Below, piece after piece: positions 35,305 to 64,000 of a stretch of 64,000 bases of DNA. Below the pieces are notes generated by a model. That model searched no databases. It saw nothing but the letters and a program-made list of their open reading frames with translations, and was not told where the DNA came from. Each line of letters opens with the position of its first letter. The stretch's first letter is position 1. The position numbers and the translations under genes were made by a program. Source of the DNA: Balanoglossus misakiensis (Eukaryota > Animalia > Hemichordata); the NCBI GenBank assembly GCA_040954595.2, contig CM082590.2:5084001-5148000 (forward strand). The letters are read 5' to 3'.

Positions 35305-35346
35305 AGTGAGGAGAAACCCTAACCCTAACCCTAGCCCTAACCCTAA
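35305..35346. repeat. Short telomere-like tract (left flank of YR element A)
   Basis: AGTGAGGAGAAACCCTAACCCTAACCCTAGCCCTAACCCTAA, the same unit as 48516-49116. Confidence 0.9.
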
Positions 35347-38130: not shown

Positions 38131-38555
38131 TAAAATAAGCTAGAAGATAGGCAATTTTTAACTTGGCGACATTTTTTCAAAAAGGTTTCGTTTTATGCTT
38201 ATTGAAACAAATATCTTACAATCCGATACATGGTTTTGAAGCTTAGATTCTGCTCTCGCTAACCGCTGAAACCGTTTTTCAAGAATCGTAAGAATGAAAT
38301 CAGAGAGCCAACGATTAGGATTAGTTACAATCGTAATTTGCACACACTTCTGGGTTTCGGCTAATTGTACGCACATACTTTTTAAAAAAGGCTTCGTTTA
38401 TTGCTTATTCTAATAAATATCTAACAATCCAATATATGGTTTTAAAGCTAAGAATCTTGGCTTTCTAACCGCTGAAATCGTTTTTAAAAAATCGTAGAAA
38501 ATGAAATCAGAGAGCCGTCGATTACGATTTGTAATGGTTGTATTAGGGTTATAGT

Positions 38556-39972: not shown

Positions 39973-40784
39973 GACACGCCCATCTAAAATCAATGGTCTA
40001 CAAAAGAGAGCCAACAGTGTTAAGTGAGGTGTCTATTGCAATGTTTTCAGGGTCAAGGAATTCAAATATGCAATCGATTACCTTGTCAAACAAGGTACAG
40101 CATGGAAAATATGCAAAATTAACTTAATTACTCACGATGTCATGCTAAAATTGACAATTGAAAGCTAATGATACGACTATGGCCTGTGAGGTGTCTATTC
40201 ACATGTTTTTTGGCAAATGTTTGCATTTTAATGAATAACTGAAATGAAACTTTTCATATTTGTATGTAATAGCATGTAAAAAACAACAAAAAACAAACAA
40301 AGAAACATACACAACGAGGATTTAGTTTAGACTGTACATGCTCGTTGGTAACATCGTGACCGATCGCTCCGTTAAAAAAACACCAGAACATTGAACGTAT
40401 GAACGTTTAGGTCCACAATTCACAAGTTATTGAACTATGAATGTATGTTCAATGTTGTGAAAAGCCAAAAACATACTTTTTGCCAACAAAACTGGCATTT
40501 GTTAACGTACAAGTTGTTCATTAATAGCGAAAGCATCGTATGGCCACACTCACATTATGCCAGCACCGTATATTCATGCTTAGTTATAAGACGTTGAATG
40601 CACACTGATGGCCCGACGTCCTCGGTGTTTTATTGAAACCCGGTCTCTAACAACAATATCTCTTCATAAGTAAAGAGTAATGTGTATTTTTATTACGTTT
40701 TTATATATGATACTGTGTGCAAAGTGAAGATTGTGTCAGTGAGGCAACATATATACATGTATGTTTAATCCACTTGGGTGTCGT

Positions 40785-42980
40785 ACTTGGCTCAGATGTG
40801 TGTACTAAACAAATTCAGATAGCGAGCCACAATATCTGTTGATGAGTTTTCATGGCAATCATTTTTTTAATTTTTTCGAAATGGCCGCCAATACAGATAA
40901 TCTCACCCGCAAAATAACAATTATAAAACACCACAATAAATTCATATTACAATATTTGAAACAAGAAACTGCTCAAATTTTCAAAAAATATATCATCACT
41001 AAACTAGTTATAGGGGTAAATACAGGATCGAGATTCAGTCGCTAAAGAAATTCAAGTTTGGTAATAACCCCGGTTACAACAAACTTAGTTAAAACACTGT
41101 ATAACCATATATATATTATAATAGTGGCCTGGCATAAACACAATTTTCGTAACATTTGGGCATTTTGTGATAAAAGTTTAACAAGTAAAGCTCAGTTGAT
41201 TCGTTATTTTCCCCATAAAAATATCTTTGATGAACAAAATTCCAAATTTAGTCAACCCAGGAAAAAACGGCATCTTGTTTCTCAACCTTATAAATTGATC
41301 TGACCAGTTTGAATTAGTGCAGAATCCAGCTTTTCTATTTTATCTTCATCAAATGATTCATGCAGATAAAGAATCACTTCCCCATAAAATGATGGCAGAA
41401 ATCCAGTATCATGACAGTCGATTGGTTTGTTAAAGTTACTATAGAAACTAACTATATGTCTAGGGTGCATGTACATAGATAGATGTTAGGAATCAAAATC
41501 AAAATCTGTTTCAAACTTTTCATCCAATACTTGTCCTTCGGAAAGCGTTTTGATGAAGTCGCTTGAAGTGCTTTGTATCATGTTATCGATAATTTTAATC
41601 ACACCTTGATGATAGTCAGCAGTTCTATTTTGACATGTTATTTTGTGTATTTGTGAACACCCAAAAGAATAAAATGATAAAGTGAAAATAAGCTTCAAAA
41701 CACCAAAAGTCTTCAGGATCACAGCTTTTCTGTAAAGAGTAAGATTTCGCTTACTTCATGCTATTAAATGAAATGAAGTTTTCCGTAATATCTCTTGCAA
41801 AGTCAGATCTTTACACATTGAGATATTAGAATGGAAGTACATTCCAAGTGACTTGTTGGGAGCCTTGGGGCACCTAATCCCAGAAAATTGCAATAAGACC
41901 TGTTTTTCCATTTACCAATCTAAAGGCCAACTGCTTGTATATTTAGTTGGGTTTCTATAATTAACACACATTTTTGACAATATTTATGGCATGATGGACA
42001 CTATTCTCGACAAATAAAATAATGTTGTGTCCTCCGGTGTAATTTTTATGAGTTTGGAATCATAGACACCATTTATCTTTTGGTCAACTCTGTTAACAGT
42101 CGCCAAAATTGCTGGAGTGGAACTGATACATGATCTAAAGTATCAAGACATATGGTCGATTATTAACGTTTCAGCAATTTGACTTAAGTTTCTTTAATTT
42201 CCTATGGCATTTTGACAAACATTAACGCCCCGAAAAAACGTTGTCAACGCTGCGGTGGCGATTGTGGTCGAAACAAAGCCGCTTGGTTCGTTACCCGGGG
42301 TCCATTTAGATTGCATTGCGTTTGAGGCCCTATGTCTGTCGACCAATAAACGTGACGACCGCGGACTCAGTTTGGATCAACGTCTATTTCGGGCAGTGGA
42401 CTCTCCTATCAAGTTGATAAGGAAATTTTACCAGTCACGAGTAAGCCAAGCCCACATCCGTGTGCAATTCGAATAAATCGGTGATCTGTTTATATGATTA
42501 TCATTAGCTAAGGTGGTAAAGTGTTGTGATTCATATGTGTAATTTACGTACTGCAAGTTAAATATCGCAATTAGCCTAATGTTTGACCATAGACAGTATG
42601 GTTTGACTTCTAGAGGAGCACCTATTAATCTGAAAGGGATTAAAAGTTGTGCCTTTAAATTGTGTTTTGATAACTTACTTACCCCTATAAGTAGTTTAGT
42701 AACCATAATATCTTTGCAAATCATTCATTCCACAGTTCCTTGTATCAAATATAGTAATCTAAATTTATTTTGGTGTTTGCAGATGTTATTTGGTGGGTGA
42801 AATTATCTGTATTGGTGGCCATTTTGAAAAATTGGTTGCCATGGAAACTCATCAACAGATATTTAGTGGCTCCCTATCTGAATTTATTTAGTACACATTA
42901 ACACACATCTGAGCCAAGTTTGGTGCTTTTATCACAAAATGCACAATCGCTATGAAAATTAGGGTTTGGCCGCTCCACTA
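40785..42980. mobile_element. Academ-like non-autonomous element with long TIRs (left tip missing), carrying a LINE remnant
   Basis: 40785-40905 is inverted at 42800-42920; right terminus ...GGTGCTTTTATCACAAAATGCACAAT...GCCGCTCCACTA. Confidence 0.6.
41150..42200 (-). pseudogene. Highly decayed L1/Tx1-type LINE RT C-terminal fragment
   Basis: Reading through stops gives KSLGMYF...IA*SKRNLTLYRKAVILKTFGVLKLIF, resembling KYLGI...W..R.LSL.GK..I.K.L..SKL.Y. Confidence 0.55.
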
Positions 42981-43845
42981 CGGGGCTTTAGACGGCCATA
43001 TGGAATTGCCACATCGAGGCTCTTGTCTCAAAATGAACTTCACACTTGAAGTATTGTTTTGAACAAGGTTTAAGTCCTTTATTAAAATAAAGAAAAGGTA
43101 ATTTTTTCCAATGCTTGTGAGTTTTCAGTACATGTACTGTTACACCTAGCTTTATTATTATTTGGTAGCCAAAAATCAACGAATTATTCATACAATATGC
43201 AAATTTTGCATAATTATTGTTGCTATTTTGTGTTTATACAACCAAAAAAAGTTGTTGATGTAAACATGTAGTTTAGTTTCATTGTTTAAGGAGGTACGTG
43301 AACATTTCTTTGATGCTATTCATGTGAGAATTGCGATCCTTGGCGGCCATTTTGATTTGCCAAAACGAGGCTCTTATCTTACAACCATTTTCGGGTTTCG
43401 GCGACAGGCTGACGAATATGCTATTTTTAAGAGTTTGCTTTAATTATTTCACGAATCCAACATATCATGAGAAAGAGCGGATCTTGTGCTTCCCAACGAT
43501 ATACATGATTTTCTTATTTGTTTTTATTTTCAATACATAATTCATTGATTTTGTAGCACACTGTCAAGCACGATGCTTGCTATTGCATTTAAAATACGAC
43601 TCCCTAACTTACTCTTAATCTTACTTCCCACGAAACCTCGGTTTTCTCGTCGACGAAAACATTAAATCTACGTTATAATGCATTAGAGATACAGTTTAAA
43701 CCGCTAGCAAAAGGTACTCTATTTACTTAAGAGTCCATCTAAGGTTTTTCCCGAGTTTGTGCGCTACTCCAGTCACTCATTTGCTCAAAGTATTTCGTCC
43801 GTCAACCGCTATTCAAGGCACTCATTCAAGGCACTCATTTCTTAA

Positions 43846-44641
43846 GATGGGTCCCTGGGATCTTTTTGCTCGTTGCTATGGGCCTTTATAGGACACTACA
43901 CTCAATTTTGATCGAAACCGTTATGAACGTCCGACAAGGGGCTTGTAACTAGTTAAAAATACGCATGATTGTGTGCACACCCCCTGTCTGAGTATGTTTA
44001 CGGCAGCTACCGCCCGGCCATAGGCCGCCACGCTAATACGGCAAAGCCGCGGTCAGAGATAGCGTGCGCGTCCTGTAACCACAGTAACTGGATCGAACGC
44101 TAAAAATCCAATGTTTTGTACACAGAGATTTTGTACCGTTCACGAAAATCCCTAAGGCTTTTTTTCACAGGCGACGTAGGCCAGCCAAATTTGACCTGCT
44201 TGTTGAGAACGCACTTCCGCATAGTGTGACGGATCGTTTTTTCGGTTTTCGTCGTGCTAAGAAGCGATACCAGTGGAAGAGTGCGTCCAAAAACACCCAA
44301 AATCGATGACTTTTTCAGGTGTGGTACGGGTATGCTGAAATCGTAGGATACAACGATAATATTCGAAAACAAAATCCGTCACGATCTTCCCTGGTTCAAG
44401 CAACTAATGAATACGTATCAAGTTCGTTTTTGAGGTCACGGAATAAAAAGCCTTAGGCTTTTGAAATTTGACCTAACTAATCTGCATATCAATGGCGTCA
44501 GGGGGCGCGCGCTCACAATCGTGCAGATTTTCAACTAGTTACCAGCCCCTTGGTAGACTCTGAAAACGGCTTAGTCCAAATCGGGGTGTAATGTCCTATA
44601 AAGGCCCATAGCAACGGGCAAAAAGATCCCAGGGACCCATC
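43846..44641. mobile_element. Kolobok-like MITE inserted into the repeat array upstream of the YR gene
   Basis: TTAA|GATGGGTCCCTGGGATCTTTTTGC...GCAAAAAGATCCCAGGGACCCATC|TTAA; ~55-bp TIR, TTAA TSD, RR...YY ends. Confidence 0.85.
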
Positions 44642-44675
44642 TTAAAGGTCATCATTGATTATTTTGTTCTTAGGT

Positions 44676-44853
44676 TCGTCAAGAGTAAACCGCTATTCAA
44701 GGCACTCTTTTTCTGTAAGGTCACCATTTATTATAAGGTTCTTTCGTCCGTCAAGAGTAAACCGCTATTCAAGGCACTCTTTTTCTGTAAGGTCACCATT
44801 TATTATAAGGTTCTTTCGTCCGTCAAGAGTAAACCGTTATTCAAGGCACTCTA
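44676..44853. repeat. 72-bp tandem repeat carrying a 29-bp dyad motif; further copies at 47051-47079 and (partial) ~43800
   Basis: AAGAGTAAACCGCTATTCAAGGCACTCTT at 44681, 44753 and 44825 (variant). Confidence 0.92.
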
Positions 44854-44859
44854 TTCACT

Positions 44860-47052
44860 ATGTCTAAGAGAGTATTTGGTAGTTCATATTGTGATATTTC
44901 TGATTCTGGTTCACACTTGTCAGGTGTTGAAGCTCTTCCAGTTGAATCATCTGACACAGAAAGCATAGAAATTCCACCAGCTCGCAGTGCAGGTAGGCCT
45001 AAGCGACTCTTTCCGGCTAAATATTTCTATGGGTCTAATAAGAAAAAGCAGAGGAAATCAAAACAGCCAAATAAACAGGATTTGAGGAAAAAAATTGACT
45101 GTCCAGTAGATGACTGCTCTGCCAAAGTGTTCAAGCTTAAAAGGCACCTAATGCAGATGCATGATGTCCCTGAAATGAGGGCGTTATTGATGACATCAAA
45201 GCACGCAACAACAAAAAGAATGGAAAGAGGGGCAAATCGAGACAGACCTTACCATCAATGTCCCCTCGATTGTGGTGCTACGGTTAAAAGACTGGACAAG
45301 CACCTGATGAATACTCACCGGTACGAGAGGGGGGATCCTCGTCTGGCGAATATTTTAGCCGACGCAAAAAAAAAATCTTACAAAAAGGCCGCGTTAGAAA
45401 GGAAGGCTCGTAAACAATCAACCGTATCAAACGCATCTAAACAAAACGAGCACAGGCCCAGAAGCCGAACAAGACGGGACCGGCAGGGCATAACGGAAAA
45501 AAGAAACCGCTCTCCCAGAAGCCCCCAGCAGGCCCCAGTTAGGGAAATAATCCCTGTAGTCAGAGAATCATCTGACGAGGAGTACATAGTACCACCTAAA
45601 CGTTACCGGCGTATCATTCCCCCCGCTAATAGTGATGAGGGTGAGGTCGAAGATGTGAGCGAAATATTAAATTCGTTTGAGGCCCACCTTTTGACTGCAG
45701 ATGGAGGGCGCCGATCACAAACTTCGGCCAAACAGAATAGGTCTCAGGTAGGCCGCCTTTTCCAGTCATTGGGGTCCCTTGAAGCAGTGGGAGATAGACA
45801 AAAAGTTCTTAATTTCATTGAAAACACACCCAATCTTAAAGTAAGTTCCGTAAGGAGCTATCTATTTTCATTTGGTATGTTTTATAACTTTTGTTCATGC
45901 AGCACCCCACCTCTCCTCCCAGGCAAAGCAGATCTGATGCACAGATTAGTTTTAAAATGGGCTACTAGCTACAGGAAAGAGGTAAATCAAAGGTCTGCCG
46001 AATTCCAATCCGAAGTGGTGCACCAGCTGATAACACATGCCAAATTTAGATCCTTTGAAAATAGCAAAACGGCAAGAGATGCCTACAAAATTATTGCATC
46101 TGCTGGGAAGAAAACCAAAGTTAGCGAACAGGAATATAAAACTGCTAATGGGTATATACTGGTCTGCATAGCCCTGGATTCTGCCTAAAGATCTGGAGCG
46201 CTGCGCAATGTAACAATCCGCGACTTCAATAAAGCGGTTGAAACCGACAACGGTCATGTTGTTTTAGTCGCAGAACATAAAACGGCCAGCTCCCATGGCG
46301 TGGCACGTTTGGTATTTACCAGGCCTCTATATAGAATAACATCACTTATGATTAGAGACTTGTTGCCTAAAACACCAGGTGGAAAAAAACCCACAAGGAG
46401 ACTTTTCTCAAGTTTTTGTGGAGAGCAGCTAAGTAGCTCTACTTTCGCCAAATTCTTGGCTGATTCCTGGCGGAAATCAGGAGTTTCAAAAAAGAAACTG
46501 ACAAGTACTATTTGTCGAAAGAGTATGGTCACCATGGTTTTAGACACCCAGCCCGAACTATCGAAGAAATTGGCTAGCCATATGAGTCACAGGGAGACGA
46601 CCCAGGCATCCTATTATAGGATTGCTGGAGCTGTGCAGGAAAGTTCTAATGTCATGCAGGAAACAAGAAAAATTAGAGATGGATTAACATCAAAAAGTAA
46701 TGCAAAAGTTGAAATTGGTCAAACAGAACCAAAGGAGGAGGAGAAAGTAGAGCCAATGGACACTGGGGAGGATGATACAGCTGTAGATCCTCTGGAAATT
46801 GTGGATTCTGAATCCATACATGCACCCTCCACTACCGAGCAGTCGCACGTCTTCTCTGGAAGACGAAGCTTTTCAATAGACCAAGTTGAACTGATAGAAG
46901 GAAGATTTAGAAAAAACATCTTGGAAAAATGTGTCACTGCTGCCCAGGTTAGGCAAGTAATGGAGGAAGACCCTGATTTTAAGGGCAGGTTCCATGGATA
47001 TACGGTGAAGCAAATTGTAGACAGAATCCGGTGTAGTTTCAGAAAAAGATAA
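44860..47052 (+). pseudogene. C2H2 zinc-finger + tyrosine recombinase + C-terminal Myb/HTH-like protein, 730 codons with one in-frame TAA (46186-46188)
   Basis: ORFs 44860..46188 and 46300..47052 are in the same frame. Two C-x2-4-C...H-x4-H fingers are present. YR motifs: DSA*RSGALRN (R), EHKT (K), TICRKS (R), ASHMSH (H), QASYY (Y). The sister copy reads DNAQR at the stop. Confidence 0.88.
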
Positions 47053-47509
47053 GAGTAAACGGCTCTTCAAGGCACTCTTTTCCCGGTGTAGTTTAAGAAA
47101 AAAGTAAAGTTAGTTGTATACCAGAAAGCAAAAAAAAAAAAAAAAAAAAAACACTGGCATGACACATGCAAAAATACATTAACAAACATACTGAACACAC
47201 ATTCATATGCACCAAACATACTTACACACACTGACATTACACATGCATGCACAAACATGTTCTTTGTTACTGTTTTTGTTTTGTTATTAATGTTTAAAAA
47301 GGAAGACAAGAAGACTGTTGAAGATAAGAAGAAAAAGAAGAAGAAAAAGAATGTTATTTGTTGTAAAAAAAGGCACAGAGAAATAAAATAAGTGTGTCCA
47401 ATTGGTGTCTCAAATGCTATGTCTGATATATTAAAAATAGAGACATGCATTTGATATCCCAGTTGAAACACACAAAACCTCAGCTACGGAGAGTACAAGG
47501 GCATATTGG

Positions 47510-47800
47510 AACCCTCAAAAGGTAGACATTCAAGAAGGAATAGGTAAAAAACAACAACAATAAGGCGAGTAAAATGTGTGCTTTATTAGTGTAAACATTG
47601 CTTTATTTAATCCCTCAAAAGGTTGAAATTCAAGAAGGGAGAGGTAAAGAACAACAGCAATAAGGTAAGTAAAATGTTTGCTTTATTTGTGTAAAACATT
47701 GCTTTATTTTATCCCTCAAAAGGTGGAAATACAAGAAGGAAGATGTAAAGAACAACAGCAAATGGGTGAGTTAAATGTTTGTTTTATTATTGTAAATATT
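47510..47800. repeat. ~100-bp tandem repeat x3 downstream of the YR gene
   Basis: CCCTCAAAAGGT at ~47512, 47612 and 47713. Confidence 0.8.
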
Positions 47801-48307
47801 GTTTGAATAACAATGGTAAATGAAGTTAATTATGTGTGACCTTGAAACTAACGTTGCATTCAAAGACATTCAAACACATTTGAAAACTGTTAACACTTAA
47901 AATCCTAAAGAATTTTATGTTTTTCAATGTTAAATACAAGATGAGGTGTGAAATAAACAATTTTTAAAAAAGGTCATTTTCAACAAATTATATGTTTTGT
48001 TTGATAGCCTATAAAAAAATAAGTTGAGTGTGGTTGAGTATGGTTTTTTATTTGTTGTAAAAGGAGAAGATTTGCTCTCTAAAACTGTTTTCAGAATGAA
48101 AATCGGACATCATTAAGTAGTCAAAAAAATTATTGAAAAAGTATGGAAAATAAATATTTTCAAATAAAGTTTTTTGTATCAAAAAAAAATAATAAACTAA
48201 AGTTAACTAGCTAAAGGTATGTATTAATGAAAGATGTATGAATTGAAACCAAAAAAGGGACTAACCCTCTTGACCTTGACCTAACCACGCCTAAAAAAAA
48301 AAATTCG

Positions 48308-48512
48308 GGTCCCCTAATGCCCAACTTATGACGTAAGTTGGGCATTGTGAGACTTGATGTTGGGCATTCGGGGACTTGAAGTTGGGCATTCGGGGACTTG
48401 AAGTTCGGCATTAGGGGACTCAGGTCCCTCAATGCCCAACTTCAAGTCCCCCAATGCCCAACTTCAGGTCCCTCAATGCCCAACTTCAGGTCCCCGAATG
48501 CCCACCGGACCC
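48308..48512. repeat. Palindromic array of ~nine 22-bp subterminal motifs (GAAGTTGGGCATTCGGGGACTT)
   Basis: One reverse, four forward and four reverse copies; single copies at the left end (35359 forward, 35514 reverse). Confidence 0.9.
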
Positions 48513-48515
48513 TTA

Positions 48516-49116
48516 CCCTAGCAGTGAGGAGAAACCCTAACTCTAGCCCTAAAACTAACCCTAGGAGTGGGAGAAACCCTAACCCTAGCCCTAACCCTAG
48601 CAGTGAGGAGAAACCCTAACCCTAGCCCTAAAAATAACCCTAGGGGTGGGAGAAACCCAAACCCTAACCCTAGCCCTAACCCTAGGAGTGGGGAGAAACC
48701 CTAGCCCTAACCCTAGCAGTGATGAGGAACCCTAACCCTAATCCTAGCCCTAACCCTAGCTGTGAGGAGAAACCCTAACCCTAGCCCTAAAACTAACCCT
48801 AGGAGTGGGGAGAAACCCAAACCCTAACCCAAGCCCTAACCCTAGCAGTGAGGAGAAACCCTAACCCTAGCCCTAAAACTAACCCTAGAAGTGGGGAGAA
48901 ACCCAAACCCTAACCCTAGCCCTAACCGTAGGAATGGGGAGAAACCCTAGCCCTAACCCTAGCAGTGATGAGGAACCATAATCCTAACCCTAGCCCTAAC
49001 CCTAGCAGTGAGGAGAAACCCTAACCCTAGCCCTAAAACTAACCCTAGGAGTGGGGAGAAACCCAAACCCTAACCCTAGCCCTAACCCTAGCAGTGATGA
49101 GGAACCCTAACCCTAA
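48516..49116. repeat. Interstitial telomere-like satellite: CCCTAA/CCCTAG runs punctuated by (GC/GG)AGTG(A/G)GGAGAAA spacers
   Basis: About 600 bp of CCCTAA, CCCTAG and CCCAAA hexamers in a higher-order repeat. Confidence 0.95.
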
Positions 49117-50739
49117 TTAGGGTCAAAGTGGTCCTCCGTGTAACCCGAATTCAAAGGTCTACCAAAAAAATCATTATGTTTTTCTAAGGTTATAAACACT
49201 GTAAGTGATAGATTACAATAAATTATTTATTTTAAGTTATTGGAGCTCTAACCCTTGTATATTTCAGGGTGAAAACAACTCAGGTAACATAGAGGACCAG
49301 TTTATCGGTTAAGGTACCATAATGGAATTGGTTAAAAGCATTTTGGTTGACCCTAATAAGTAATCCAGGTGTTATTCAATTGTATAAGTGTCCCCTTCTA
49401 CCCCCCTGCAGGAAAACAAAGTGAAAAAATGTTGGTCCAAAAAAATGTAGTAAAATTCTTATACTTACTGTGAACTGGCTGCATCAGAAAAAAACGAAAT
49501 CTTCACAAGCATGATTTTTGGCATAAAAATCGTTATTTCACCGAATTTTGAAAAACCTTTGGCACGTTTGTAATATTTTTGATGCTAATTTTATTATACC
49601 AAAATTTTAAAAATTCATCAAGATTTAGGAAAATTATTCAAATAACCAGTGTTGGGGACCACTTTGATGTTACCTGTGTATTGTCTATGGGCGAAAATGC
49701 GACTTTTTTAAATTGTTGCAATTTCATTGTTATTAAACATACAGCTGTCAAACTCACATATTTATTAACGTTGACATAACAGATTTCAAAACTAGTTTCA
49801 GTTTTAAAATCGAAGGTCGCTAATGTGAGTTGTAGGTTACAAAAAACATACCAAAGGTAAATTTTAAAATTTTCATGCTTGTTTTGTTCGGAGCACTCCA
49901 GTTTGTTTATTTCTAAAGCTTTCACTTTGATTGTTCAATATGTTGTAGATATGAAAATGTTCTTTTAAAAACAGGTTACACTTTTGAAATCGGTGGATGG
50001 GAAGTTGACCAATTAATGCCATGTATGAGGTGCACCCGAAATTAACTGTATCCTGATTTTTTTTTTTAAATATACACTTTGCTTTGTTAAGATTATTTTT
50101 TTTATTTTATGCATTTCAAAGATGAAACTTTTGGTAAACCATTATGAGATGTTATAGAATATTGAAAAGTTTACACTATTAAGATTTGACACCATTAATT
50201 ATTTCAAATAATGCTGCAAAATAGACTGAAATAACTCCCATTGACTTAACATGTATAAAAACAAAAGAATAAGTTTTTGGGGACACTTGGAGATTTGTTT
50301 TTATGTTGAAAACTCGGCGAAAAATGGTTTGTTTTATGCTTATTCTAACGAATATCTTACAATCCAATATATGGTTTTTAAGCTCAGATTCTGGGCTCTC
50401 TAATCCTGAAAACCGTTTTCCAAAAATCATAGAAATAAAATCAGAGAGCCAACGATTACAATTTGTTACGATCGTATTTTGCACTCACTTCCGCGTTTCG
50501 GCCAATTGCAGACAAATACTTTTTATAAAAGGCTTTGTTTTATGCTTATTCTAACAGTTATCTAACAATCCAATATATGGTTTTAAAGCTTAGAATCTTG
50601 GCTCTCTAACCACTGAAACCGTTTGTCAAAAATCGTAGAATCGAAATCAGGGAGCCAACGATTATAATTTGTTATGGTCTTTTTTCGTGTGTAGGGTTAG
50701 GTACTTAGGGATTTGGGCGACAGGCAAAATCCTCAGTTT

Positions 50740-53330
50740 TTTTAGGTTAAGTTTACATCACTTCTGACTCACTTAGAGTGGGCCAATCTTTAAAGTGTAA
50801 AGTGTTTTGAAATCGTCAATTACTGCTCTAAAACATGTTAAAGACCGGAGTTGGTATCTTTTAGAATAAATTAATAGGTTTGCTACAAAATAAAGTGATG
50901 TTTAAGTGATTCTTTTGTTTTTATGCATGTTAAAGAATAGGATAAATTATAATATTTGTGACCCTATCCTGATTTGTACAATGAAAGTAGCTTGAGTACT
51001 GTTTTTTTCAGGATGTATAGACATTTGAATTCCCCATGCTATAGTACATTATTTTTTTGAAATGTAGACAAGAAGTTATAAAACTGTAATTATGAAAAAT
51101 AATGTCAGTGCCCCATAGGCTTTACACTGTAGACAACAGGGTGTCATAGGTTAAAATTTTGGAAAGTAAGAAAACATGTTGTTTAAAGCTTGTTATTTTC
51201 AGAGACTGTTAAGAACATGATGGGATACTCCATACATTTTTTTAATGTTGTTACATGTACAGCAATGCCATTAGCTATTGGGTCAAAATAGGTAATTCAT
51301 ATATCTCACAATGACATTTTTGTTATATTGCCATGTGTTTGCAAAGTTGCTTTAAACACTTAGCATCGTCCAATTTTAAAACAGTTTTCTGTTTTGAAAA
51401 GGGTATAAAAAACTACATAACAGATTGAAGAATCAAATATTAGGAATAAGGAAACTGCATTGTTCCAAGAAAGGTGCTGTCAATCGACAAAGTAGACAAT
51501 ACTGTTTGACCCCTTTAACAGCATATATTATCACACAAAATTGACATTGTTGTACCACTCTGGTTTCTTTATTTATTCAGCAATGAAGTTCACACTTTAA
51601 CAATATATTAAAAACATATTGTTCTTTATAATACATATGAAACAGTTTTAAAATCGGATAATGCTAAGTGTTTAAACCAACTTTGCAAACATATATTGCA
51701 ATATAACAAAAATGTCATTGTCAGATTTATGAATTGCGTATTTTGACTCAATACCTATTGGCATTACTCTACATGTAACAACTTTTAAAAAATGTATGGA
51801 GTATCCAATCATGTTCTTAACACATTCTGAAAATAACAAGCATTAAACAACATGTTTTCTTACTTTCCAAAATTTTAACCTATGACACCCTGTTGTCTAC
51901 AGTGTAAAGCCTATGGGGCACTGACATTATTTTTCATAATTACAGTTTTATAACTTCTTGTCTACATTGTCTCATTTAGAGTGGGCCGATCTTTAAAGTA
52001 TAACCTGTTTTGAAATCGTCAACTACTGCTCTAAATCATATTGAAGACCTGATGTGGTATCCTTAAGAATAAATTAATATTTGTGCCAACCAAAAAGTGA
52101 TGTTAAAGTGATTCCTTTGTTTTTATGCATGTTAAAGAATAGAACAAATGATAAAACTTAAGACCCTACCCTAAGATGTACAATAAAGGAGATTTAGTAC
52201 TGATTTTTTCAGGAAGAATAGACATATACATTCTCTATTCTGGAGTACAATAATATTAAATAAATAAAGACAAAAGTTATAAAAATATAATTATGAAACA
52301 AAATGTTTGTGCCCCATAGGCTTAACACTGTAGAAAACCAGGTGTCATAGGTAAAAATTTAGGAAAGTAAGAAAACATGTCGTTTAAAGCTTGTTATTTT
52401 CAGAGACTGTTAAGAACATGATGGGATACATACATTTTTTTAAAGTTGTTACCTGTACAGTAATGCCAGTAGCTATTGATACAAACTAGGTAATTCGTAA
52501 ATCTCACATGGACATTTTCGTTATATTGCCACTTTATTTGGCACACCAGTTGATTTATTCTTGAAGATTTCACATCGGATCTTCAATATGTTTTAGAGTA
52601 ATGATTGGCGATCTCCAAACAGGGTACACTTGTCTACATTGTCTCATTTAGAGTGGGCCGATCTTTAAAGTATAACCTGTTTTGAAATCGTCAACTACTG
52701 TTCTAAAACATATTGAAGACCTGATGTGGTATCCTTAAGAATAAATTAATATTTGTGCCAACAAAAAAGTGATGTTTAAGTGATTCTTTTGTTTTTATGC
52801 ATGTTAAAGAATAGAACAAATGATAAAACTTAAGACCCTACCCTAAGATGTACAATAAAGGAGATTTAGTACTGATATTTTCAGGAAGAATAGACATATA
52901 AATTCTCTATTCTGGAGTACATTAATATTAAATAAATAAAGTCAAATGTTAGAAAAATAAAATTATGAAACAAAATGTTTGTGCCCCATAGGCTTAACAC
53001 TGTAGAAAACCAGGTGTCATAGGTAAAAATTTAGGTAAGTAAGAAAACATGTTTAAAGCTTGTTATTTTCAGAGACTGTTAAGAACATGATGGGATACTA
53101 CATACATTTGTTTTAAAGTTGTTACCTGTACAGTAATGCTAGTAGCTATTGATACAAACTAGGTAATTCATAAATCTCACCTGGACATTTTCGTTATATT
53201 GCCACTTTATTTTTGGCACACCAGTTGATTTATTCTTGAAGATTACACATTGGGTCTTGAATATGTTTTAGAGTAATGATTGGCGATCTCCAAACAGGGT
53301 ACACTTTTAAGATCGACCTACTCCAAGTGT
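50740..53330. repeat. Inverted repeat (51070-51400 vs 51640-51965) plus ~670-bp tandem duplication (51960-53330)
   Basis: TGTCTACATTGTCTCATTTAGAGTGGGCCG at ~51959 and ~52631; reverse-complement arms surround 51420-51620. Confidence 0.85.
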
Positions 53331-53639
53331 GTAAAATCTGATTTAATAACATGCATCCACTGTTCATGTAATACATGGGCAAGTTTAAATTAGGGACCAG
53401 AGTTTATCACTTACCCTTAGCTTCATTTCTCTTCATGATTGCATTGGTTCATTTCGTGTAGATTATTGTGCATGTTAAAACAGATTGACTTCAAAAGTGC
53501 TGCATTTTAAAGTCGCCAGTACTTAGGAAGTACACCTATTAGGAAGCACGTTAAACCACTGCATCTTCTTCAAAACATGTATGTATTTATTGAGTGCATG
53601 TGAGTGTGTGTCAGTGTTATGATAATATTAATAATAATT

Positions 53640-54020
53640 ATAATGTTACAGAGACGTTATAAATAAATAAGTACATTGAAAGTGATCTGTTGAAAAGTAT
53701 ACGTATTACATTACAACATTACAAATATTAAATAAGCAACTTAATAATAATGCTTTTCAAAAAGATATGTTACAGAGACATTATAAATAAATAAGTACAT
53801 TGAAAATGATCTGTTGAAAAGTATACATATTACATTACAACATATTACAAATATTAAATAAGCAATTTAATAATAAATCTTTTCAAAAAGATATGTTACA
53901 GAGACATTATAAATAAATAAGTACATTGAAAATGATCTGTTGAAAAGTATAAATTCTACAATACAACATATTACAAATATTAAATAAGTTCAAAAAGATA
54001 TATTACAAAGACATTTAATA
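53640..54020. repeat. ~125-bp AT-rich tandem repeat x3
   Basis: ATGTTACAGAGAC(G/A)TTATAAATAAATAAGTACATTGAAA at ~53643, 53767 and 53893. Confidence 0.88.
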
Positions 54021-54055
54021 TGTAAGAATAATGTGTGTATATGTGTGTTTGTCTT

Positions 54056-56014
54056 TTAAGTTGCTTTTTCTCTCTTATCCACCCTATTAATTCTGTCCTT
54101 TCTTATTCTTAATTGACGTACGGACACAGTTTCGAATTTGTTTGGTTGAGAATTCCGCCATTTCATCAGCCAAAGTTGGGTTGTCTTCTTGTACTTTTCA
54201 ACATCTTTGCTGCTAACTTTACCAACTGCTATCTCTTCTGCAAACATTTCTTTAATGGCTTGCTAAAAGTGTGACGGCCGTGTTCAATTCCATGGCCTGA
54301 AGTTTGACTTATATTGTCCCCCACCCTATACCAGGGCTGCCAGTCATCTCCACACCACCCTCATCTGTATTGTCAACAAAAGGCCTTTTGGATATGGCCA
54401 GTTTTGAAAACAACTGATTTGGGTGGTGGTCAATGCTGGGTGGTGCTATGCTTCCAACTGAACTCTCATCATTTCATATTACTCAGTTGCACTCACTTTC
54501 ATTTTTTCTCTTCCATTTTTTATTCGCAACTATCTTGGAACACAATTCACGCGTTGAATAGGTAACACTCGCAGATTCCTGCACACCTTTTGTCATGGCA
54601 TAAAAAGATGTCTGTGAGCGGGAACTTTGTGCCATGTGTGATGCGAGGGGCACTGCAAGATCAGGATCGTTCAGCAAAACATATGTAACGGTGGATTTGC
54701 ATAAAATTGTTGTGGTCAGTTCTTTTGAAATGACATCCGCGAAGCGCCAGGCAGCTTTCAGCGTCTTCGCAAACGTACTCGAGTTAAAATCCCTGCCATG
54801 ATACATCCTGAACAATCTGGTAGAGTTATCATTCTCCCCCCCCCCCACCCCTCACAAAAGGGTAATACGTGTTCAATCTACATCATAGCCTGTTTATACA
54901 GTGTAGACGAGAAAACAATTCTCGCGGGCCCTGATGCTGCTGAAGTTTTATGTGCCGCAACAGTCACAACAAACCCCTTGTCAGTCTCTTTTGGCTGCTC
55001 TAACATCCCCAACTGTTATATTTTTATAGGCACAATTTCTTTGTGCATTGTCTAGGACTAGTTGCACCATAATGTGGCCTGACATTAAGCAAAAATCTTC
55101 TCGTGAAACCCCTTGTCAGTCTCTTTGGCTGCTCTAACATCCCCAACTGTTATGTTTTATAGACACAATTTCTTTGCGCATTGTCTAGGACTAGTTGCAC
55201 CATAATGTGGCCAGACATTAAGTAAAAATCTTCTCATCAAACGTGTGGTCTGCCCTCCCCCACATAGCTAAACTCCACAAAAGCCCTGTTGGCGTGGATC
55301 GCCATTTCGCACGTCTCATAGGATGCAATCTCCTCAGGAGTTAAGAACTTCTCCTGTTCTGCATCCTGAAAAACACTTCTCCTTAATTTTACTTCTTTTG
55401 TCAGACTCTGAGCCCAACGTCTACTATGATTTATCATCTGGCGTGCATTTTTAATAAAACCATTATGTTCTGAATCGAGAAAATGATAAAAAAAAGTCTC
55501 AAAGAAAAAATATATGACCGAACTGTTGAAGCTTCATAAGGCTTGAGCATGGCTTCAAGACATTCCCTGACTTTTCCCTTTTCACTCAAACCTTCCCCCC
55601 CCCCACCCCACCCAAACAGACTCAACCAGTGTTTCATCCTGAGCTGGATGCTGGATGGCTGCTTTCCCAAATTTTCTCCCCCCATCCATTCCCTGTATCC
55701 ACTTTTTACAATCAGTTATAATAATATTTTCTGTGCTTTCCATCACCCCTACCCTCTTTCTCTCTAATTTCTGCCTCCAATTCTCTGTCTGTTTCAATAA
55801 CCCCCACCCCTCTCTCGCCTTCTGAATCACTTCTATTTACTGATTCGAAATCTCTTTCTCTTTCACTAACCCTCTCCCCCATCTCACCATCACTTTTATT
55901 ATTTCTGACTTCTAAAGATCTTTTCTCCCCTTCCCTACAACTTCTTTTGCGATCTTCCTGCCCTACATTGCCCTTTTCCCTCTGCTGTGTAATGTATTCC
56001 CTTTTGAGTCGCAA
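54056..56014 (-). pseudogene. Second tyrosine recombinase gene of the same family, multiply frameshifted
   Basis: Fragments align in order with the 44860-47052 protein: GMDGGRK/TADGGRR, STVRSYIFS/SSVRSYLFS, RWAQSLTKEV/KWATSYRKEV, AHKTSAASGPARIVF/EHKTASSHGVARLVF, SSTFAKTL/SSTFAKFL, LASHMAQ/LASHMSH, GVQESA/AVQESS. A ~135-bp duplication lies at 54972-55235. Confidence 0.88.
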
Positions 56015-56069
56015 TGCAACTCTAGCAGTTTGGGCCAGTTAGTATTTTGTATTTGGGGTGTCTGGTACT

Positions 56070-59053
56070 AATTACCCTTCGGCTCCCAAGAAAAGGACAA
56101 GGACAACTCTTTGGCAGGAAATATAGGAAGTACTTTTTATTTGCAAGACTCCACCTTACAGAAATTAAATAAACAATAAACTCAAGTACAGGGAAAATAA
56201 ACTCATGTAATAATGTTCTGAAGGCGTAAATGCCTAAACTAAACACTTCGCCGAATAGAAAGGCTGCTAAGGTATTACAAAAGCAGAGAGCTCCCAAAAC
56301 ACGCACGCAGCATCTCGGGAAAGAGCTGTGTGTGAACTGCGCATATGCAAACTGGCCGATAGAGGGCTCACTAACCCGATGAGTAATTAGACAGAATGAC
56401 ACATTATTAAACAAATTACCATTCGGCTGCCAAGAAAAGGACAATGACAACTCTTTGGCAGGAATTATAGGAAGTACTTTTTATTTGCAAGACTCCACCA
56501 AACGGAAGTACCGGCCAGAGAGTTGTCCAAATTTAAGTTAAAGCAATATATAAATTAAATAAATAGAAAAATTCTAAAATTGACACGCTAACAAGACCTG
56601 CTGATTTGAAACTAACAACTCTGAAACTGTGACTACAAGTCATAACATGTGAAATACAGGCGGGTGGACAAGGGAATTTTAACATAACGCTCATAGGCGT
56701 CTGAGCGCCAATCCCCGTGGAGTTTGATCAGGTCTGGGGGAACCCCTGCTGCATGGGCCAGGGAGGCTCCACCCCTACGCAAACTGTGAGCAGAATAAAG
56801 TTTGCTGTCTTTGCTAATGGCTTCCAGTAGTTTGCCAAGAGCCGATGAAAACGATGAAAATGTCAGACTGACAAGCTTCCCGTTCTGAGGGTAAATGGCT
56901 GATCTCTCGCGGCCGGCACCGAGGAGAGCATGAGTTTAACTGCCGACACAGGGCAAAGGGGGCTGCCAGGCAACGCTGCTAGCGGAATAAAGAGAGTGCG
57001 CTCATGACACTGCAGTGTCTTGGACCAACGCACTGCAAGCATAACGTGCTTATCACTAAATGCAATATCGCGCCTGGTGAGGTGGCGATTGCGATCAAAT
57101 GAGTGCTTGGAGGGAGGAACCAAGTTCGATTTCCTCAAAAAGGCAAAGAAGCCAATTAAAACAGCGCACCAAACTGTTAAATGAAACTTGCTGGAAAGAT
57201 CAATAAATGTTGCCATTTCCTCCAACATGGGAACTGTCAAAGGCAACTTCTGAGAAGGTGTGTGGACACTGCTTTTTCTGATGCCTGTGAGCGCCAATTT
57301 GAAATCCAGGCATTCGAAAGGTTCCAGGCTGTGGCCGGTCAGTATATGAAGTGTCTTGACACCTGCAATATAATTGGTAACGGATGCAGGACTACTAAAC
57401 GACTTGCTAAGAAACTGGGCATAAAGCGCCAAAACTGTGGACGTTGTAGGCACCGCTTGCAAACCGTAGTGAAGTGCAAAACTGATATAGGAGCGGAACT
57501 GAATATTCAGGTTCCTGAGCGTACCGGGACGAAAGGCTGCTAGCCGGGAGTTCTTGACCTCTTGTTTTAATAACTCCAGATCTTGCTGCACAGCTGCAAA
57601 TAAATTAAAATAAGACGTTTAGTGAAAACAATGCTTCTGAAGGACGAGTTTCTTCAAGAAGTTTATCTCCTGTGAGTGAGGCAAAGGTGTCGCGGTACTT
57701 GCGGTCGAAATGCCAGCGTGACAAGCAATCGGCAATGCTGTTCTGAGCGCCAGGAAGATAGCGCGCTTTCAGCTCGGAGTTCTCGCGCGGCTGACATGAG
57801 AAAGGGGTCGCGACCGCGGCCGGTGTTAAGAACCTGTACCGTGCTGCTGTTGTCACTGTAGACTAGAATGCGCAGGCCTGTCCATTTGTCACCACAAAGT
57901 CTGGCCGCCAATACGATGGTGAGCATTTCAAGGCAGTGGATAGGCTGTTGCTGCTGCAAGACAAAATCTGGGAATGGGGCATGGAAATACTGTGAGGCTG
58001 AGATTCCACCACATCCTTAAAGGCAAGCATCTGTACAAATAACGCTGTTGGGTGTGGACCAGACCAGTTCCGGAATAATCGAAACGCCAATATATTGCCT
58101 AAGAAAAGAGATCCACCAACTGATATCTTGCTGGAACTGCACGTTTAAGTAAATGTGATGCTGCGCCGACTGGACACAACGTAGCGTGTCAAGCATGCGG
58201 CTAATAAAAAGACGGCCTGCACGAACACAGCTAGAGACAAATGAAAGCTTGCCGATAAGGACCTGCAACTGACGTCTAGTGGCCTTTTTCCTGCCTGACC
58301 AATGAGCAAGAAGCTCTGAAAGCTCAGTGAGCCTGTCCTCTGTGACTAAAAACGAGAGACAAGTTGTGTGGGTTACAGCTTTACCAAAGGCTTCCTGTAG
58401 ACCTAATTCAGAGAGAAGAGACCGCAAAGCTGAAAAGGCGGACTGGGCCCGTATAAGGGTGTCTGAGTCGCAAAAGTCATCCAAAAAATTGACTGCGCTA
58501 GGCTTAACTGGTTGATCCACACTAATTTGGGGAGGGTTTCTGACGAATCTGGTATGCAGGTTGTCAAAATCGTCGCCCCACTCCAACAACGCCTGCTCAA
58601 GGTATTGTAAAATTATTGAGTGGTATTTACGGACCCTCTCCGAAGAATACAACTGAGCGTCAGTGACAATGTTTTGCAAGTGTGCTAAACGATTCACAGT
58701 TGAAGCATTATCTAAACTCATCCCTAATATGATCTCCAGTTCACTCGATACCAGCTGTGGTAAAGTCAATTCATCATAATTGCCTCTGGTTTGCGCGGGT
58801 TGGGGTCTCGGATGTATTCGTGTGGCCATGGTATGTACATGAGAATCCTGTCTGTTGGTTTCCTCTTGGCGCCGCTTTTTATTCTTTTACCTTTTGTCCT
58901 GGTGGTAGTCGATGGCTGGAGAAGCCTGTTCCTCGTCCTCGTGCGCGGAGCGTTCCGTTTCTCTTCTTGTTTCTTCCCGTCGCCATGTCTGCTGTCTGCA
59001 TCGTCGCTGGAGAAGGTTTCACCGGATGATTCTGAAGAACTGATAGAAATGTC
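56070..59053 (-). mobile_element. DIRS-order retrotransposon, Ngaro-like (split direct repeats), internally deleted
   Basis: Gag-like region 58500-59050 fused to an RT remnant (FLDDF, LIGKLSF), RNase H (TDACL, LEMLTI, SDN, NSIADCLSR) and YR 56685-57591 (FFAFLRKSNLV, WSKT, HSLRRGGAS, GDWRSDAY). ~85-bp direct repeats lie at 56070-56155 and 56414-56499. Confidence 0.9.
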
Positions 59054-60170
59054 TGTAATATTCAGGCTACTACAGTGATGGCGGAGAGAACACACTTTAT
59101 TACTAAGTGTACTACGCATGCGTATAGATGACGTCATGCACATAAACAACATCCCATTATGTTACATCTCCCTTTTTTTCAGCGGAAAGTCATCAACAAC
59201 AATAACAACAAAACAAGTGAACAGATCATCATAGTCCTTGTCCTTCAAATATCTGGCAGACTTCTTCAATACTTCAACAACAAATCTGTTCAGAGTTCGA
59301 ATGTTCATCGAATGTTCAAGTGTTCAGAATGTTCAATTCAAAACTGTTTTTTTTTCTTAATAAACATGTTTCGTTTGGTGTGTGCATATGTATTTCAACA
59401 AACTCCGAAATCAGTTCTTTCCACATTAAGTGTGTACATAGTCCTGGAATCTTACTGGTCTTCTCACAACGCGTCCTCTGGAAGTGGTTTTCACTGACTG
59501 GTTGCCTGTGGCATCTGCTTGCGTCATACTGCTACAAACCGAGTTAGGATTGGTTACCGTCATCTCTTTGTTAGGTTTTACATCTGGTGTAGTTTCTTCA
59601 ACAGCAGGTGGTTGACAATACTTTACAAGCAGGTGGTCATCAGCGACATCTGGAACAACTGGCATTTCTTTTGTTTTCCTGGTCACGGCGGTTTCTACGG
59701 TAGATGTGTCCATTTGACTCGACAATATATAATCGTGGTGTACTTGCTCTGGACTGTACAACTGCTGGTTTCCATCATTTGGTTGTCTTCATCCTCACAA
59801 ACTCATCGTTTGATAAACTGGGCAGATCTTTGGCATGCTGGTCATGATAGTATTTCTGTCTTTGTTTCAATGTTTCCAGGCTTGGCTTTACATTCTCAAC
59901 ATGTTTGGGCTTCAGCAAAATCTCGCTGGTTGGAAAGAGTGTTTTTTGTTCTCCTACCCATGAGTCTCTGCACAGGTGATCCCAGCTGGCTGTCACGTGG
60001 TGTGTTTCTGTGATCCAACAAAGCTAAATATGGATCCTTGTTATTCCGCTTGGCTTTCTTCATAAGCGATTTAGCACTTTTGACTGCATTTTCTGCCATT
60101 CCATTAGATTTGGGGTATCTTGGACTTGATGTGACGTGTTCAAATCCATAGGCAGCTGCAAACTTGACAT
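59054..60170 (-). mobile_element. Gypsy LTR retrotransposon 3' remnant: integrase fragments, PPT and 113-bp 3' LTR (59054-59166)
   Basis: TSSPRYPKSNGMAENAVK, ALLDHRNTP, SPVQRLMGRR and TSRGRVVRRPVRFQDYV motifs; PPT AAAAAAAGGGAG; LTR TGTAA...TTACA abutting the Ngaro gag. Confidence 0.9.
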
Positions 60171-63100
60171 GTATATTTTTGAGCTGAACAATAAACATGT
60201 TTAATACTTTACTTGCCAAAATAAAACAACTCGTGAGTGACTTGGTCAGTTGTCATGGTTCAGTATGTAAAAAAAATGAAATAATACATTTTATGGGTAC
60301 GTACCCACATACAATGTGACGTCACTTGCGCAGTTAGTTGTTGTTAGAGTAAACAAAAGATCACGTGATTGTGACGTTACAGTTTCCGTGTAGTAGCGGC
60401 GGTTCATTCAAACATGTTCCTTACCATCGGACTGTTATATCGGCAATTCTTTTCATGTTAAAGATTTGTTTATCGATATTTATTTCACAAAGAAAAAATA
60501 TACCCAAAATGGTATTTGTCATCAACTGGGCAAGTAATCTAAAAACATATATAAAGCGAAGATATCTCCATTTGAATTTCAATTTTACATGGCAACATCT
60601 CCCGAAAAATGCCGACCTCACTTCAGGTATTTTTGGATGCAGCGTTATTTTCATTGTATGTATTACCCTTGTTTGAAAAGTTCCCTTTTATGAGATCTGA
60701 CTATCACTATAATTCAGGGCTCGAAATTCGCGGTAGCCCCGCGTCCACAGACTACCAATGACTATCACTACAATAGACACAAGGAATTCAACATGGCGGT
60801 GCTACCTCATTTCATTCGTTGAACAAAAAACCTTGGATCCGCAGGCAGCCCGTTGATATCTGTGAATAAGGAGGGTAGAAATTGTGCAAATTATTTCAGA
60901 CATCAAAAATGAGTTAAGATGGTGCTGTATATCATGTATATTACTTTGCATGTTTTTGATACGTTGTGCGTTATTTTGAACGCCTTAAAGGGAAAGTTAG
61001 GTGGAACCGATTTAGTATTATGTGTTAGCTTTGCGTTCAGTTATTCAGGGGAATAAACATTTCGCCTTCCCAAACTCATGGGATTTTGCACATAAAGGGA
61101 AAGAGATTCTTCGATATCAAATGTCGTCAGACGCGCTCAGGCGGCAGTTACGTTGGCATTCAAATTTCCAGATGATGGGCAACTTCAACAACGTGGTGCA
61201 GACAAAGACTGTGCAGACGAAATGCAATGAGGTTGATGATGCACCATACCTGATACATGTTACGTGTCTAGCGGTTCTAAAGTAAAAACATACTCGTAAA
61301 ATTGTTTACTAGATGCCAAAATATTGCTTGCCCGTCATCTGAAAATGACAACGCCGTGGCTCACATGGCCAGATCACGTGATTGATAGTAAAGAATTGAC
61401 AGAAGATACATTCTGGGGCTACATCAAATTAAACTATTTTGAATCCTTTGCATATAAGTCTTCATATAAGCCTTCATGATTTCTATGATAAAAAGATGTG
61501 AATAGTATTATTTGTTAACAAATCTCTCCTCACAAAAGAATAGAAAGGTTTGGAGCATTATCATTTTGTCAAATCTGTCCAGAGGCGCATACTGCCTTAT
61601 GATGATTACATAGGCCTAATTAATTAATGTTTTACTTAAAGGGACAAAGTCTCTCTCTTGCTGCCCCCTTTCCATTGATTATGTTTGATTCAACACACCA
61701 TGTGTATATATAGTGAAACAACGTTCGACCACACATGTTTGTAGGATATGAGAGTCAAAATCTCGCCCAAATGAATAAACAGTAGAGACCGATTATTCAT
61801 TTTGGCGAGTTTTTCACTCTCGTGTCTGCAAGTGGGATGAAAGGTGTGTGTGGTCGAACGTTGATTCACTATATATCCACATGTAGAATAACATAAACGG
61901 TGTCTTATATCAAACATAAAGGGCTTATAGGGCACACTGACAGTGACAAAACTATACCACAAACCGTTGCATAATGGTCCCAAGCAGACATACATTTCCA
62001 CAACTTCGCCTCCATAGGCGTAGGAACCAGGAGGGGGAGGGGTGGTCACTTGCCCCCCTCCAATTCTGAAATGTGTGTGTGGGGGGGGGGGGGGGGCAAA
62101 GAAATACTTTTGCCCCCCCCCCCCAACTTTAGGGACAAAAAATTGCGGTTTCGAGATTGTTATATTACAAAATTTTCCAATGTCACGGGGGGACACCCCT
62201 TCCCACACCCACCACTTTCATTCTTTCACACCTTTCATGTATTGCCTGGTGTACCTGCGCAGAGTACTTGCCCCCCCCCCCCCACCAATGGTAACTTTGA
62301 GCGGCGAAGGCTAAATTTGACCTCCCCAACATAGTTGAGTTAATTTACTTTTGAGTTCATTAAAATGCAGCTTTGAGCTCTGTATTTAATAAAATTTTCT
62401 AACGTGGGAAGGGGGCACCAACTCCCTAACCCACCGTTATCAATTCTACTAACTATTGTAATGACTTGTCGATTTAATTTGTTCATATATTAATTTAATT
62501 ATTTTAATTTATTCATGTATGCAAATTTCCATTGTAAGTCATTCACCACCAGAATGTTGGTTACATTTTACCCCCCCCCCCCCAAACCATGAATTGCTCC
62601 CTAAGCCCCTGGCCTCGCAAATTATTCGTACAATGTGCACTCTCATCCATTTGGGCTTAGATTATTCCTCAAATAATTTAGCGAAAACATATAAAGAAAA
62701 TCATTTCAAACAAATGCTACACAATTTGAATGACGTCCAATGGGCTTTTCATTGTCCTATCATAGAACATTGAAAGGGTATATGAATAAGGCTTTCCAAC
62801 AAAAGGTACTACATAATTAGATTTAAAAATTATTTTTCGCTTATAATGAATAAAGTACAAAGAAATTCTGAAAATATTGTGTCAATTTTATTCAAACAAA
62901 ATTGCCAATATTGAAATGAATTCTTCAAATACATGTAATCAATAATTGAAATATCAACCTGTCTTCTTTATTAGTATATGTAGACATCTTAAAACACTAT
63001 CATTCTTATTAACATGCCCATAACATCATTGATGTAGTTTTTTTTTCAAACCAGTTGATGTTAATTTGTGTGTTTGTTTTTGTGTGGCATCTGTCTCTGC

Positions 63101-64000
63101 AATTTACATATTGTTTGAAAGACTCATAAACAGAGAGTTCAAATTAAATGAGGGGTAAATTCAGTATGTTCTAAAATAATTCAATACAAACAAAGTTGTC
63201 TTATTCATGACAGCTGTCCCTGACACAGATGTACACATGGCCAATACGGGCACTGGCTAAACACATCTGTTTGACCCACGTCTATTCACTTTACAAGTTT
63301 ATCTTCACACTGATAAACTAGGGATTGACCAACCAGGTTAACATATTCGGGGGAAAATGTGCTTAAAGCAGAGAAGGGATGCTTTTACAGGAACAACATC
63401 CAAAACAAAAGAATCAGATCAGACTGAATAATCCAAGCTGGCCAGTTTCTGTGTGGGGGGATATTTGTGAGGTGAATTTACAAGCTGGATACTTCACATA
63501 TTCTTTAAAACACAATGTAGAAAACGTACATACAAAAGGATTTTAAAAGGAAACATGACATTAACTGTGACTTGGGAGTATAACCAATTTGTGTGTATTG
63601 AACATACCTGTAGTGATAACAATAAGCTGTGGTTTAAGTATTTTATCGACAAAATTATCAGATTGTACAGATGGTCTTAGAACAACCTTGGTTATTGAGC
63701 TGTCTTAAACACAGAAACTCGTGAAGCTTTTTGTCCTATTACTAAATATTCAAGCAGATATTGTCATTGCAATTAACCTTGTCCCTGCTGGATCAATTGA
63801 TAAAGAGAACACTGAGTTAACATGAAATAAAGTCTGTCCCCACATGTCTGAGTAATGGTTCCATACAAAATGATTCACTGACAAATGAAATGTTATATTT
63901 AAGACAGCTGGTTTGGATCCAAGGGAAATGAAATGAAATCACTGTCATTTCTGACAAGATTGTTAGTACTTAGTACATCAATTAAATTTTGCATATATCA

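Follow-up and report, generated by a model that had tools for sequence, protein, structure and literature searches.

In this study, two elements with tyrosine recombinase (YR) genes were analysed in a 64,000-nt stretch of the genome of the hemichordate Balanoglossus misakiensis (assembly GCA_040954595.2, contig CM082590.2, positions 5,084,001 to 5,148,000), hereafter the window. Element A (35347-48515, +) interrupts a telomere-like tract of CCCTAA-type hexamers, and element B starts at 49117, where the same tract ends. B is probably the left arm and the decayed gene of a second, divergent YR element, which would have been inserted independently at this tract by site-specific recombination.

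Junctions with the telomere-like tract

Element A is 13,169 bp long and mostly non-coding, with inverted ends (25 of 32 bases alike) and one long open reading frame (ORF), the YR gene at 44860-47052 (+); no other long ORF was seen in it. The 15-mer junction ACCCTAATTAGGGTC was present at 35340-35354 and 49110-49124 and nowhere else in the window, a result matched by 0 of 100 shuffles. The recurrence of an identical CCCTAA junction at B, claimed in an earlier sequence-only reading, was thereby confirmed. The tract consists of a left piece of 44 bp (35303-35346, +), which ends in CCCTAA CCCTAA before A, and a main piece of 601 bp (48516-49116, +), the putative target, in which CCCTAA and CCCTAG hexamers are arranged with a higher-order period of 246 bp. 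All 21 CCCTAACCCTA sites of the window fall inside these 645 bp, and B occupies a site of the CCCTAACCCTA type.

At the left junction of A, CCCTAA CCCTAA is followed by TTAGGGTCC; at the right junction, GGACCCTTA is followed by CCCTAG CAGTG. A parallel unit of the tract at 48724 is composed of two hexamers, one xCCTAG, one CCCTAA and one CCCTAG, and the insertion site of A has one hexamer more than this unit. A single repeat unit is split cleanly by A, and the tract resumes in register. The direct repeats flanking A are CCCTAA on the left and CCCTAG on the right (5 of 6 bases alike), and the right end of B lies outside the window. In the simplest reading, the junctions of A would form a YR site with 9-bp inverted arms and a 6-bp spacer, CCCTA(A/G); from this one complete insertion we infer that the target may be CCCTAA-CCCTA(A/G). 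Assignment of A to PIF/Harbinger, with a TTA duplication and GGGTCC ends, was rejected: the TTA after CCCTAA is missing from the tract and present at both junctions.

Contigs were compared from runs X1-X3, which represent one sample (word coverage 0.38, 0.35 and 0.00, respectively); no RNA run was listed among those containing the sequence. A contig of run X2 tracks the tract to 49029 and then reads ATTAGGGTCCAAGTGGTCC, a variant B-type end, where the window has the native CCCTAACCCTAG. Six X2 contigs share a variant at 49138, indicating that several B-type ends exist. Another contig, joining the left flank (35273-35302) to the tract, was not callable as an empty site, with 35303-35346 lying outside the compared stretch. 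Two junctions at the tract and a third in a contig thus favour target specificity, as proposed earlier, though the sites are few and the contig is from a single sample.

Searching with the junction 20-mer gave no hits in viral contigs or prokaryote genomes and seven metagenome loci. Four of these (L003, L004, L005 and L007) were rejected as members of a hAT-like family (DUF659, E 1.6e-18) with CCCTAATTAGGG palindrome arrays; in L005 the element (678-3846; also in the other three) has a 779-aa DUF659 ORF and subterminal CCCTAATTAGGG arrays. Two others (L001 and L006) were rejected as degenerate repeat mosaics. Only L002 (1-5562) resembles an end of the type described here, its pure CCCTAA repeats leading into TTAGGGTCC and then an AT-rich interior; it also has an internal inverted pair of telomere-like arrays (3143-3490 and 4273-4696). 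No related loci were found via YR homologues in the viral contigs or genomes searched.

Shared blocks and recombinase genes of A and B

Element B begins with the terminal arm TTAGGGTC (49117-49124, +), identical to the left end of A and preceded by CCCTAA CCCTAA. In a motif search, the adjoining B-specific subterminal motif AAAGTGGTCCTC (49125-49136, +) was found again in inverted form at 49292-49303 (-), approximately 175 bp from the B end, and at 49654-49665 (-). With up to one mismatch, these are the only three occurrences in 64 kb (0.28 expected by chance), and 0 of 100 shuffles reached three. A likewise carries its own motif inverted approximately 175 bp from its end, at 35523-35529. Of the inverted echoes reported earlier, those at 49292 and 49655 were therefore recovered, and the one at 53393 agrees with the terminal motif in no more than 7 of 12 bases, its likeness to the 49294 copy with a 2-base insertion being post hoc. 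The weak end-like motif at this place (53390-53408), between the shared blocks and the YR 3' region, is a candidate rearrangement breakpoint only. The motif pattern differs between A and B, as had been described, and a role as subfamily-specific binding sites is putative.

As the sequence-only reading had stated, AT-rich parts of B are homologous to A: between 49894 and 53336, matches to A cover 2994 bases, with long blocks at 80-85% identity and mostly on the same strand. Block a (50039-50306, +; 84% to A 36190-36452) starts 922 bp from the B end and 843 bp from the left end of A. Block d, in two copies, follows at 50320-50702 (+; 83%), where B 50321-50702 corresponds to A 38179-38560. Block b, approximately 670 bp with degenerate inverted ends, occupies 50722-53336 (+; 81-84% to A 36585-37321) as three copies in direct orientation plus a partial one that is inverted; B 50722-51331 corresponds to A 36585-37193 (81%), and B 51973-52655 and 52645-53330 both correspond to A 36631-37321 (83-84%). 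The order is a-b-d in A and a-d-b-b(inverted)-b-b in B, and the three blocks had no match in the window outside A and B (E 0.01). An X1 contig joins 49945 to 50060, so the B arm is linked to block a in a further copy as well. At 38556-39972, A has a 355-bp unit repeated four times in tandem (98%), which B lacks.

The homologous, divergent YR gene claimed for B was identified at 54085-55743 (-), with core-binding, catalytic and C-terminal domains. With a profile of 82 homologues, A excluded, separate minus-strand pieces were matched between 55743 and 54318 (E 4e-21, 2e-19 and 7e-10). The C-terminal domain (54212-54108) was weak by profile (E 0.62), and its pairwise score was reached by 0 of 500 shuffles. 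Identity to the A YR is 33% over 324 positions; at the DNA level, the best piece is 49% identical. The gene has decayed to a pseudogene, with several frameshifts and stops, a 133-bp tandem duplication spanning the first catalytic arginine (54970-55242, -) and the loss of two catalytic residues (R553 replaced by C and H577 by Q; A numbering). Upstream of it, 55744-56066 (-) is a probable low-complexity linker, for which homology was not significant; no zinc finger was found in B in six frames, and the finger region is not within 56067-64000. A 126-bp tandem array (53643-53988) lies downstream of the gene, and 3' UTR homology between A and B was no better than in the wrong-strand control.

The YR is on the plus strand in A and on the minus strand in B. 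Since the blocks are mostly on the same strand, the YR of B is reversed relative to them, as had been reported.

The A ORF encodes two C2H2-type fingers and is interrupted once, by a premature stop at codon 443; its family comprises 1024 clusters (E 0.001). Named members among 20 clusters looked up were from Ptychodera flava (best match), Paramuricea, Mizuhopecten, Desmophyllum and Hydractinia. In the 83-row alignment, R444 and K474 are conserved in 82 rows each, R553 and H577 in all 83 and Y586 in 80; the first H of the H-X-X-R motif is replaced by T or N. Among 60 members, Pfam Phage_integrase was matched by 28 and Phage_int_SAM_1 (SAM-like) by 7, and DUF3504 and GCR1_C by none (E 0.01). The fold model of the YR (mean pLDDT 76.9) matched XerA, Cre and Tn1549 Int. 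In a FastTree phylogeny of 84 sequences, A, B and P0055-P0058 formed one clade (0.997), within which the position of B was weak (0.108). The term sister element, used earlier for B, is thus appropriate as to the clade, and A is equally close to the Ptychodera flava protein (34%) and to B (33%). The C-terminal domain, folded from a single sequence (pLDDT 67), matched homeodomain/Myb folds with Z up to 4.7; the best match, TEBP-1 MCD2 (Z 4.7, rmsd 3.0, 56 aligned), was tied with generic homeodomains. A homologue search with the C-terminal ORF retained 0 of 1696 candidates.

Around the A ORF, a 30-bp direct repeat (26-28 of 30 bases) was observed at 44681, 44753, 44825 and 47051, with a weaker copy at 43797. 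Three copies make up a 72-bp array directly before the ATG, and the copy at 47051-47080 overlaps the stop codon; the arrangement is compatible with a cassette boundary or with operator sites, and the repeat has no copy in B. An element of approximately 800 bp (43842-44645), flanked by TTAA on either side and bearing inverted ends of 143 bp (82%), sits in this array; judging by its ends, we take it to be Kolobok-like.

Origin and orientation of element B

The ends of A and B differ beyond 8 bp and their YRs are 33% identical, which supports the earlier proposal of two independent insertions by related subfamilies. In the mechanism considered, the element would be excised as a circle, its joined ends placing a 6-bp telomeric hexamer between two inverted arms of 9 bp. 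This site would be paired by the recombinase with two tandem chromosomal hexamers, the first mimicking half an arm and the second serving as the exchanged spacer. From the extra hexamer at the A site we take the spacer to be asymmetric, which would fix the orientation; the 35347 end of A would then be the same end as 49117 of B, and the YR module of B would be reversed relative to A. The end layout points the same way: it is likely that 49117 corresponds to the left end of A and that the YR is truly reversed against it. Subterminal motifs may be bound by accessory domains (C2H2 fingers or the C-terminal helix-turn-helix), subfamily by subfamily.

The blocks are 80-85% identical and the YRs 33%, so backbone and gene have different histories; non-coding blocks were probably exchanged between subfamilies long after the YRs diverged. 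For the flipped module an internal inversion had been suggested. The reversal itself is real, and a clean inversion is not established, as neither breakpoints nor an invertible pair were found in the window comparison of A and B and the block order differs too; modular shuffling or exchange appears likelier than a single inversion.

Three other explanations were considered. The first, which we regard as unlikely, is that 49117 to approximately 53400 is a separate non-autonomous element, the YR remnant belongs to a neighbouring element and the flip is an accident of adjacency. Such a composite would fit the gap between block identity (80-85%) and YR identity (33% in protein, 49% in DNA), the end-like TTAGGGACC at 53390 and the lack of a bridge between arm and gene in the contigs listed. 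However, TTTAAA and not CCCTAA precedes 53390, the likeness to the A end (18/32) is at background level, and the segment has no closing right arm. Moreover, the B motif, being unlike that of A, calls for another recombinase, and a YR of the same clade lies beside the segment.

Still less probable is an insertion without fixed orientation, in which B would lie opposite to A with 49117 as its YR-downstream end, the blocks would have been acquired separately in this arm and nothing would be inverted. It is favoured by the same arm at both ends of A, by a tandem array of 100-126 bp after the YR in both elements and by the alignment of the B end, which fits the right end of A weakly better (z 2.7, reached by 2 of 60 shuffles) than the left (z 0.6). 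Against this stand the asymmetric spacer implied by the extra hexamer at the A site, motif spacing and a distance of block a that match the left end of A, and tandem units that are unrelated between A and B. That the tract is not a target, belonging to the elements themselves or arising from repair, with a palindromic junction made without recombinase targeting (e.g. by homologous recombination of the host between telomere-like repeats), is very improbable: CCCTAATTAGGG arrays near the ends of unrelated hAT-like elements, tract-like sequence with other flanks in run X1 and the homology-based telomere integration discussed for herpesviruses in PMC7016691 would agree with it, but A splits one repeat unit cleanly with the tract in register, and the junctions of two divergent elements are base-exact.

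Several points weigh against B as the arm and gene of a second element targeted to the tract. The interval 53336-54085, from B arm to YR gene, has no match to A and is bridged by no contig listed; neither tract nor B-type end was found right of 56066 within the window, the other end of B not being present. The X2 contig with a B-type end could be an allele of the same insertion. The spacer model is drawn from one complete insertion, A, whose right arm has one mismatch to the left. Telomere binding by the C-terminal domain is not supported beyond the fold class. The junction 20-mer alone is not diagnostic, and a YR match was found in 0 of the 7 metagenome loci, L002 included. Summed contig depth, which is not copy number and was not used as evidence, was higher for the blocks than for the YR; in X2, the B-end and YR contigs were of similar depth (212 and 205).

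Neighbouring features and related elements

Element B, described earlier as ending near 56060, is truncated at 56067 by a retrotransposon remnant (56067-59054, -), which lies outside B and has motifs resembling those of reverse transcriptase (RT), RNase H and YR. It has a split direct repeat (56067-56163 = 56411-56507), and from its motifs and repeat layout we take it to be of DIRS/Ngaro type. PHROGs searches returned an integrase match for it (E 5e-4) and also a transposase match (E 0.007); neither the DIRS/Ngaro nor the Gypsy pieces were confirmed by Pfam, and the PDB sequence search gave no match. At 59055 the remnant is cut by a long terminal repeat (LTR; 59055-59165) with a purine tract and integrase-like ORF pieces to 60252, and an X2 contig links 59015 to 59393 via 49 nt of other sequence.

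Elsewhere, the window contains a non-LTR retrotransposon with endonuclease and RT domains (198-3226, -), nested duplications (3502-15034) including a 4.1-kb near-tandem pair (8098-12093 and 10988-15034, 89%), and a 530-bp imperfect palindrome (33623-34153, 78%) with GATTCG/CGAATC hexamer arrays in its arms. A 300-bp palindromic miniature inverted-repeat transposable element is present in three copies (15372-15710, 30081-30386 and 61636-61924) and is very abundant in the runs.

The A/B family was compared with known systems, statements on these being limited to the available parts of the sources cited. Target-specific DNA transposons are rare in eukaryotes, and some families of CryptonV (Kapitonov and Jurka 2012), described from cnidarians, are microsatellite-specific (PMC8869645). 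Like CryptonV, the present family consists of YR-only DNA transposons, with members in Desmophyllum, Paramuricea and Hydractinia, and specific insertion in microsatellite repeats was found at two window junctions and one contig junction, which are few sites. No mention of reversed YR modules, of an arm-spacer site or of a TTAGGG-type target, as proposed for the present family, was found in the literature searched. Judging by description, CryptonV would be the likely home of the family.

Crypton F, S, A and I (Kojima and Jurka 2011) are YR-driven with a proposed circular intermediate, and their 4-6 bp direct repeats reflect microhomology with the target (PMC3212892, PMC13465315). They are described without terminal inverted repeats, and YR sites have 6-8 bp spacers and terminal direct repeats, with which the A site agrees (PMC3212892). 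As the ends of A are inverted (25/32), the family was not filed under these groups; two C2H2-type fingers, a SAM-like domain and a C-terminal helical domain also set it apart. The sole enzyme is nevertheless a YR, as seen in A (B is incomplete), and catalytic residues are kept in the family, which may work like a Crypton with inverted ends and may be CryptonV. Crypton transposition itself lacks experimental demonstration (PMC13565253).

The telomere-associated YRs of endogenous nimaviruses (Kawato et al. 2023) have C2H2 and SAM-like domains and insert at the host telomere motif (PMC10871703); they keep 5 of 7 key residues and belong to viral genomes of 280-400 kb with the target TAACC/GGTTA (PMC10871703; Bao et al. 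2020, PMC7016691). C2H2, SAM-like and YR domains are likewise combined in A and its homologues, in which the H-X-X-R motif is altered, B being without the finger region. In contrast, A stands alone at ~13 kb, and no large nimavirus-type genome with core genes was found. The top 50 viral Foldseek rows included no named nimavirus, 11 of them being unnamed. Integrases of the Tn1549/Tn916 type (6emy, 6en0 and 6en2) have the same fold and differ in being bacterial, with AT-rich targets and no zinc fingers. As in the mechanism considered here, these elements use a circle intermediate with inverted arms and a target matching the arm only partly. Neither RT nor RNase H, both expected of DIRS/Ngaro elements, was found in A or within 49117-56066; the RT-like piece beyond 56067 has its own YR and repeats. 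As for Starships, DUF3435 was matched by 0 of 60 members (E 0.01), and no cargo ORFs were seen.

In the literature searched, no stand-alone TTAGGG-targeted YR transposon of animals was described, CryptonV with its microsatellite specificity and the telomere-specific nimaviral YRs coming closest; the 2012 CryptonV report, Kojima 2020 and Repbase may already cover inverted ends or telomeric targets. More tentatively, and with some doubt on our part, a widespread, stand-alone animal YR family may insert into pairs of tandem TTAGGG-type hexamers, always in the same orientation, taking the telomeric hexamer as its own spacer and reading the repeat with a Myb/homeodomain-like domain; subfamilies 33% alike would share a core arm, carry private motifs and swap or invert the recombinase cassette in a shared backbone. 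B is a dead, incomplete copy. With two divergent elements at the same tract, the recombination site becomes readable as arms, spacer and target. If the family does home to TTAGGG repeats, the report on nimaviral YRs would be extended to stand-alone animal transposons, and intact members would be natural telomere-directed integrases that could serve as repeat-directed ones.

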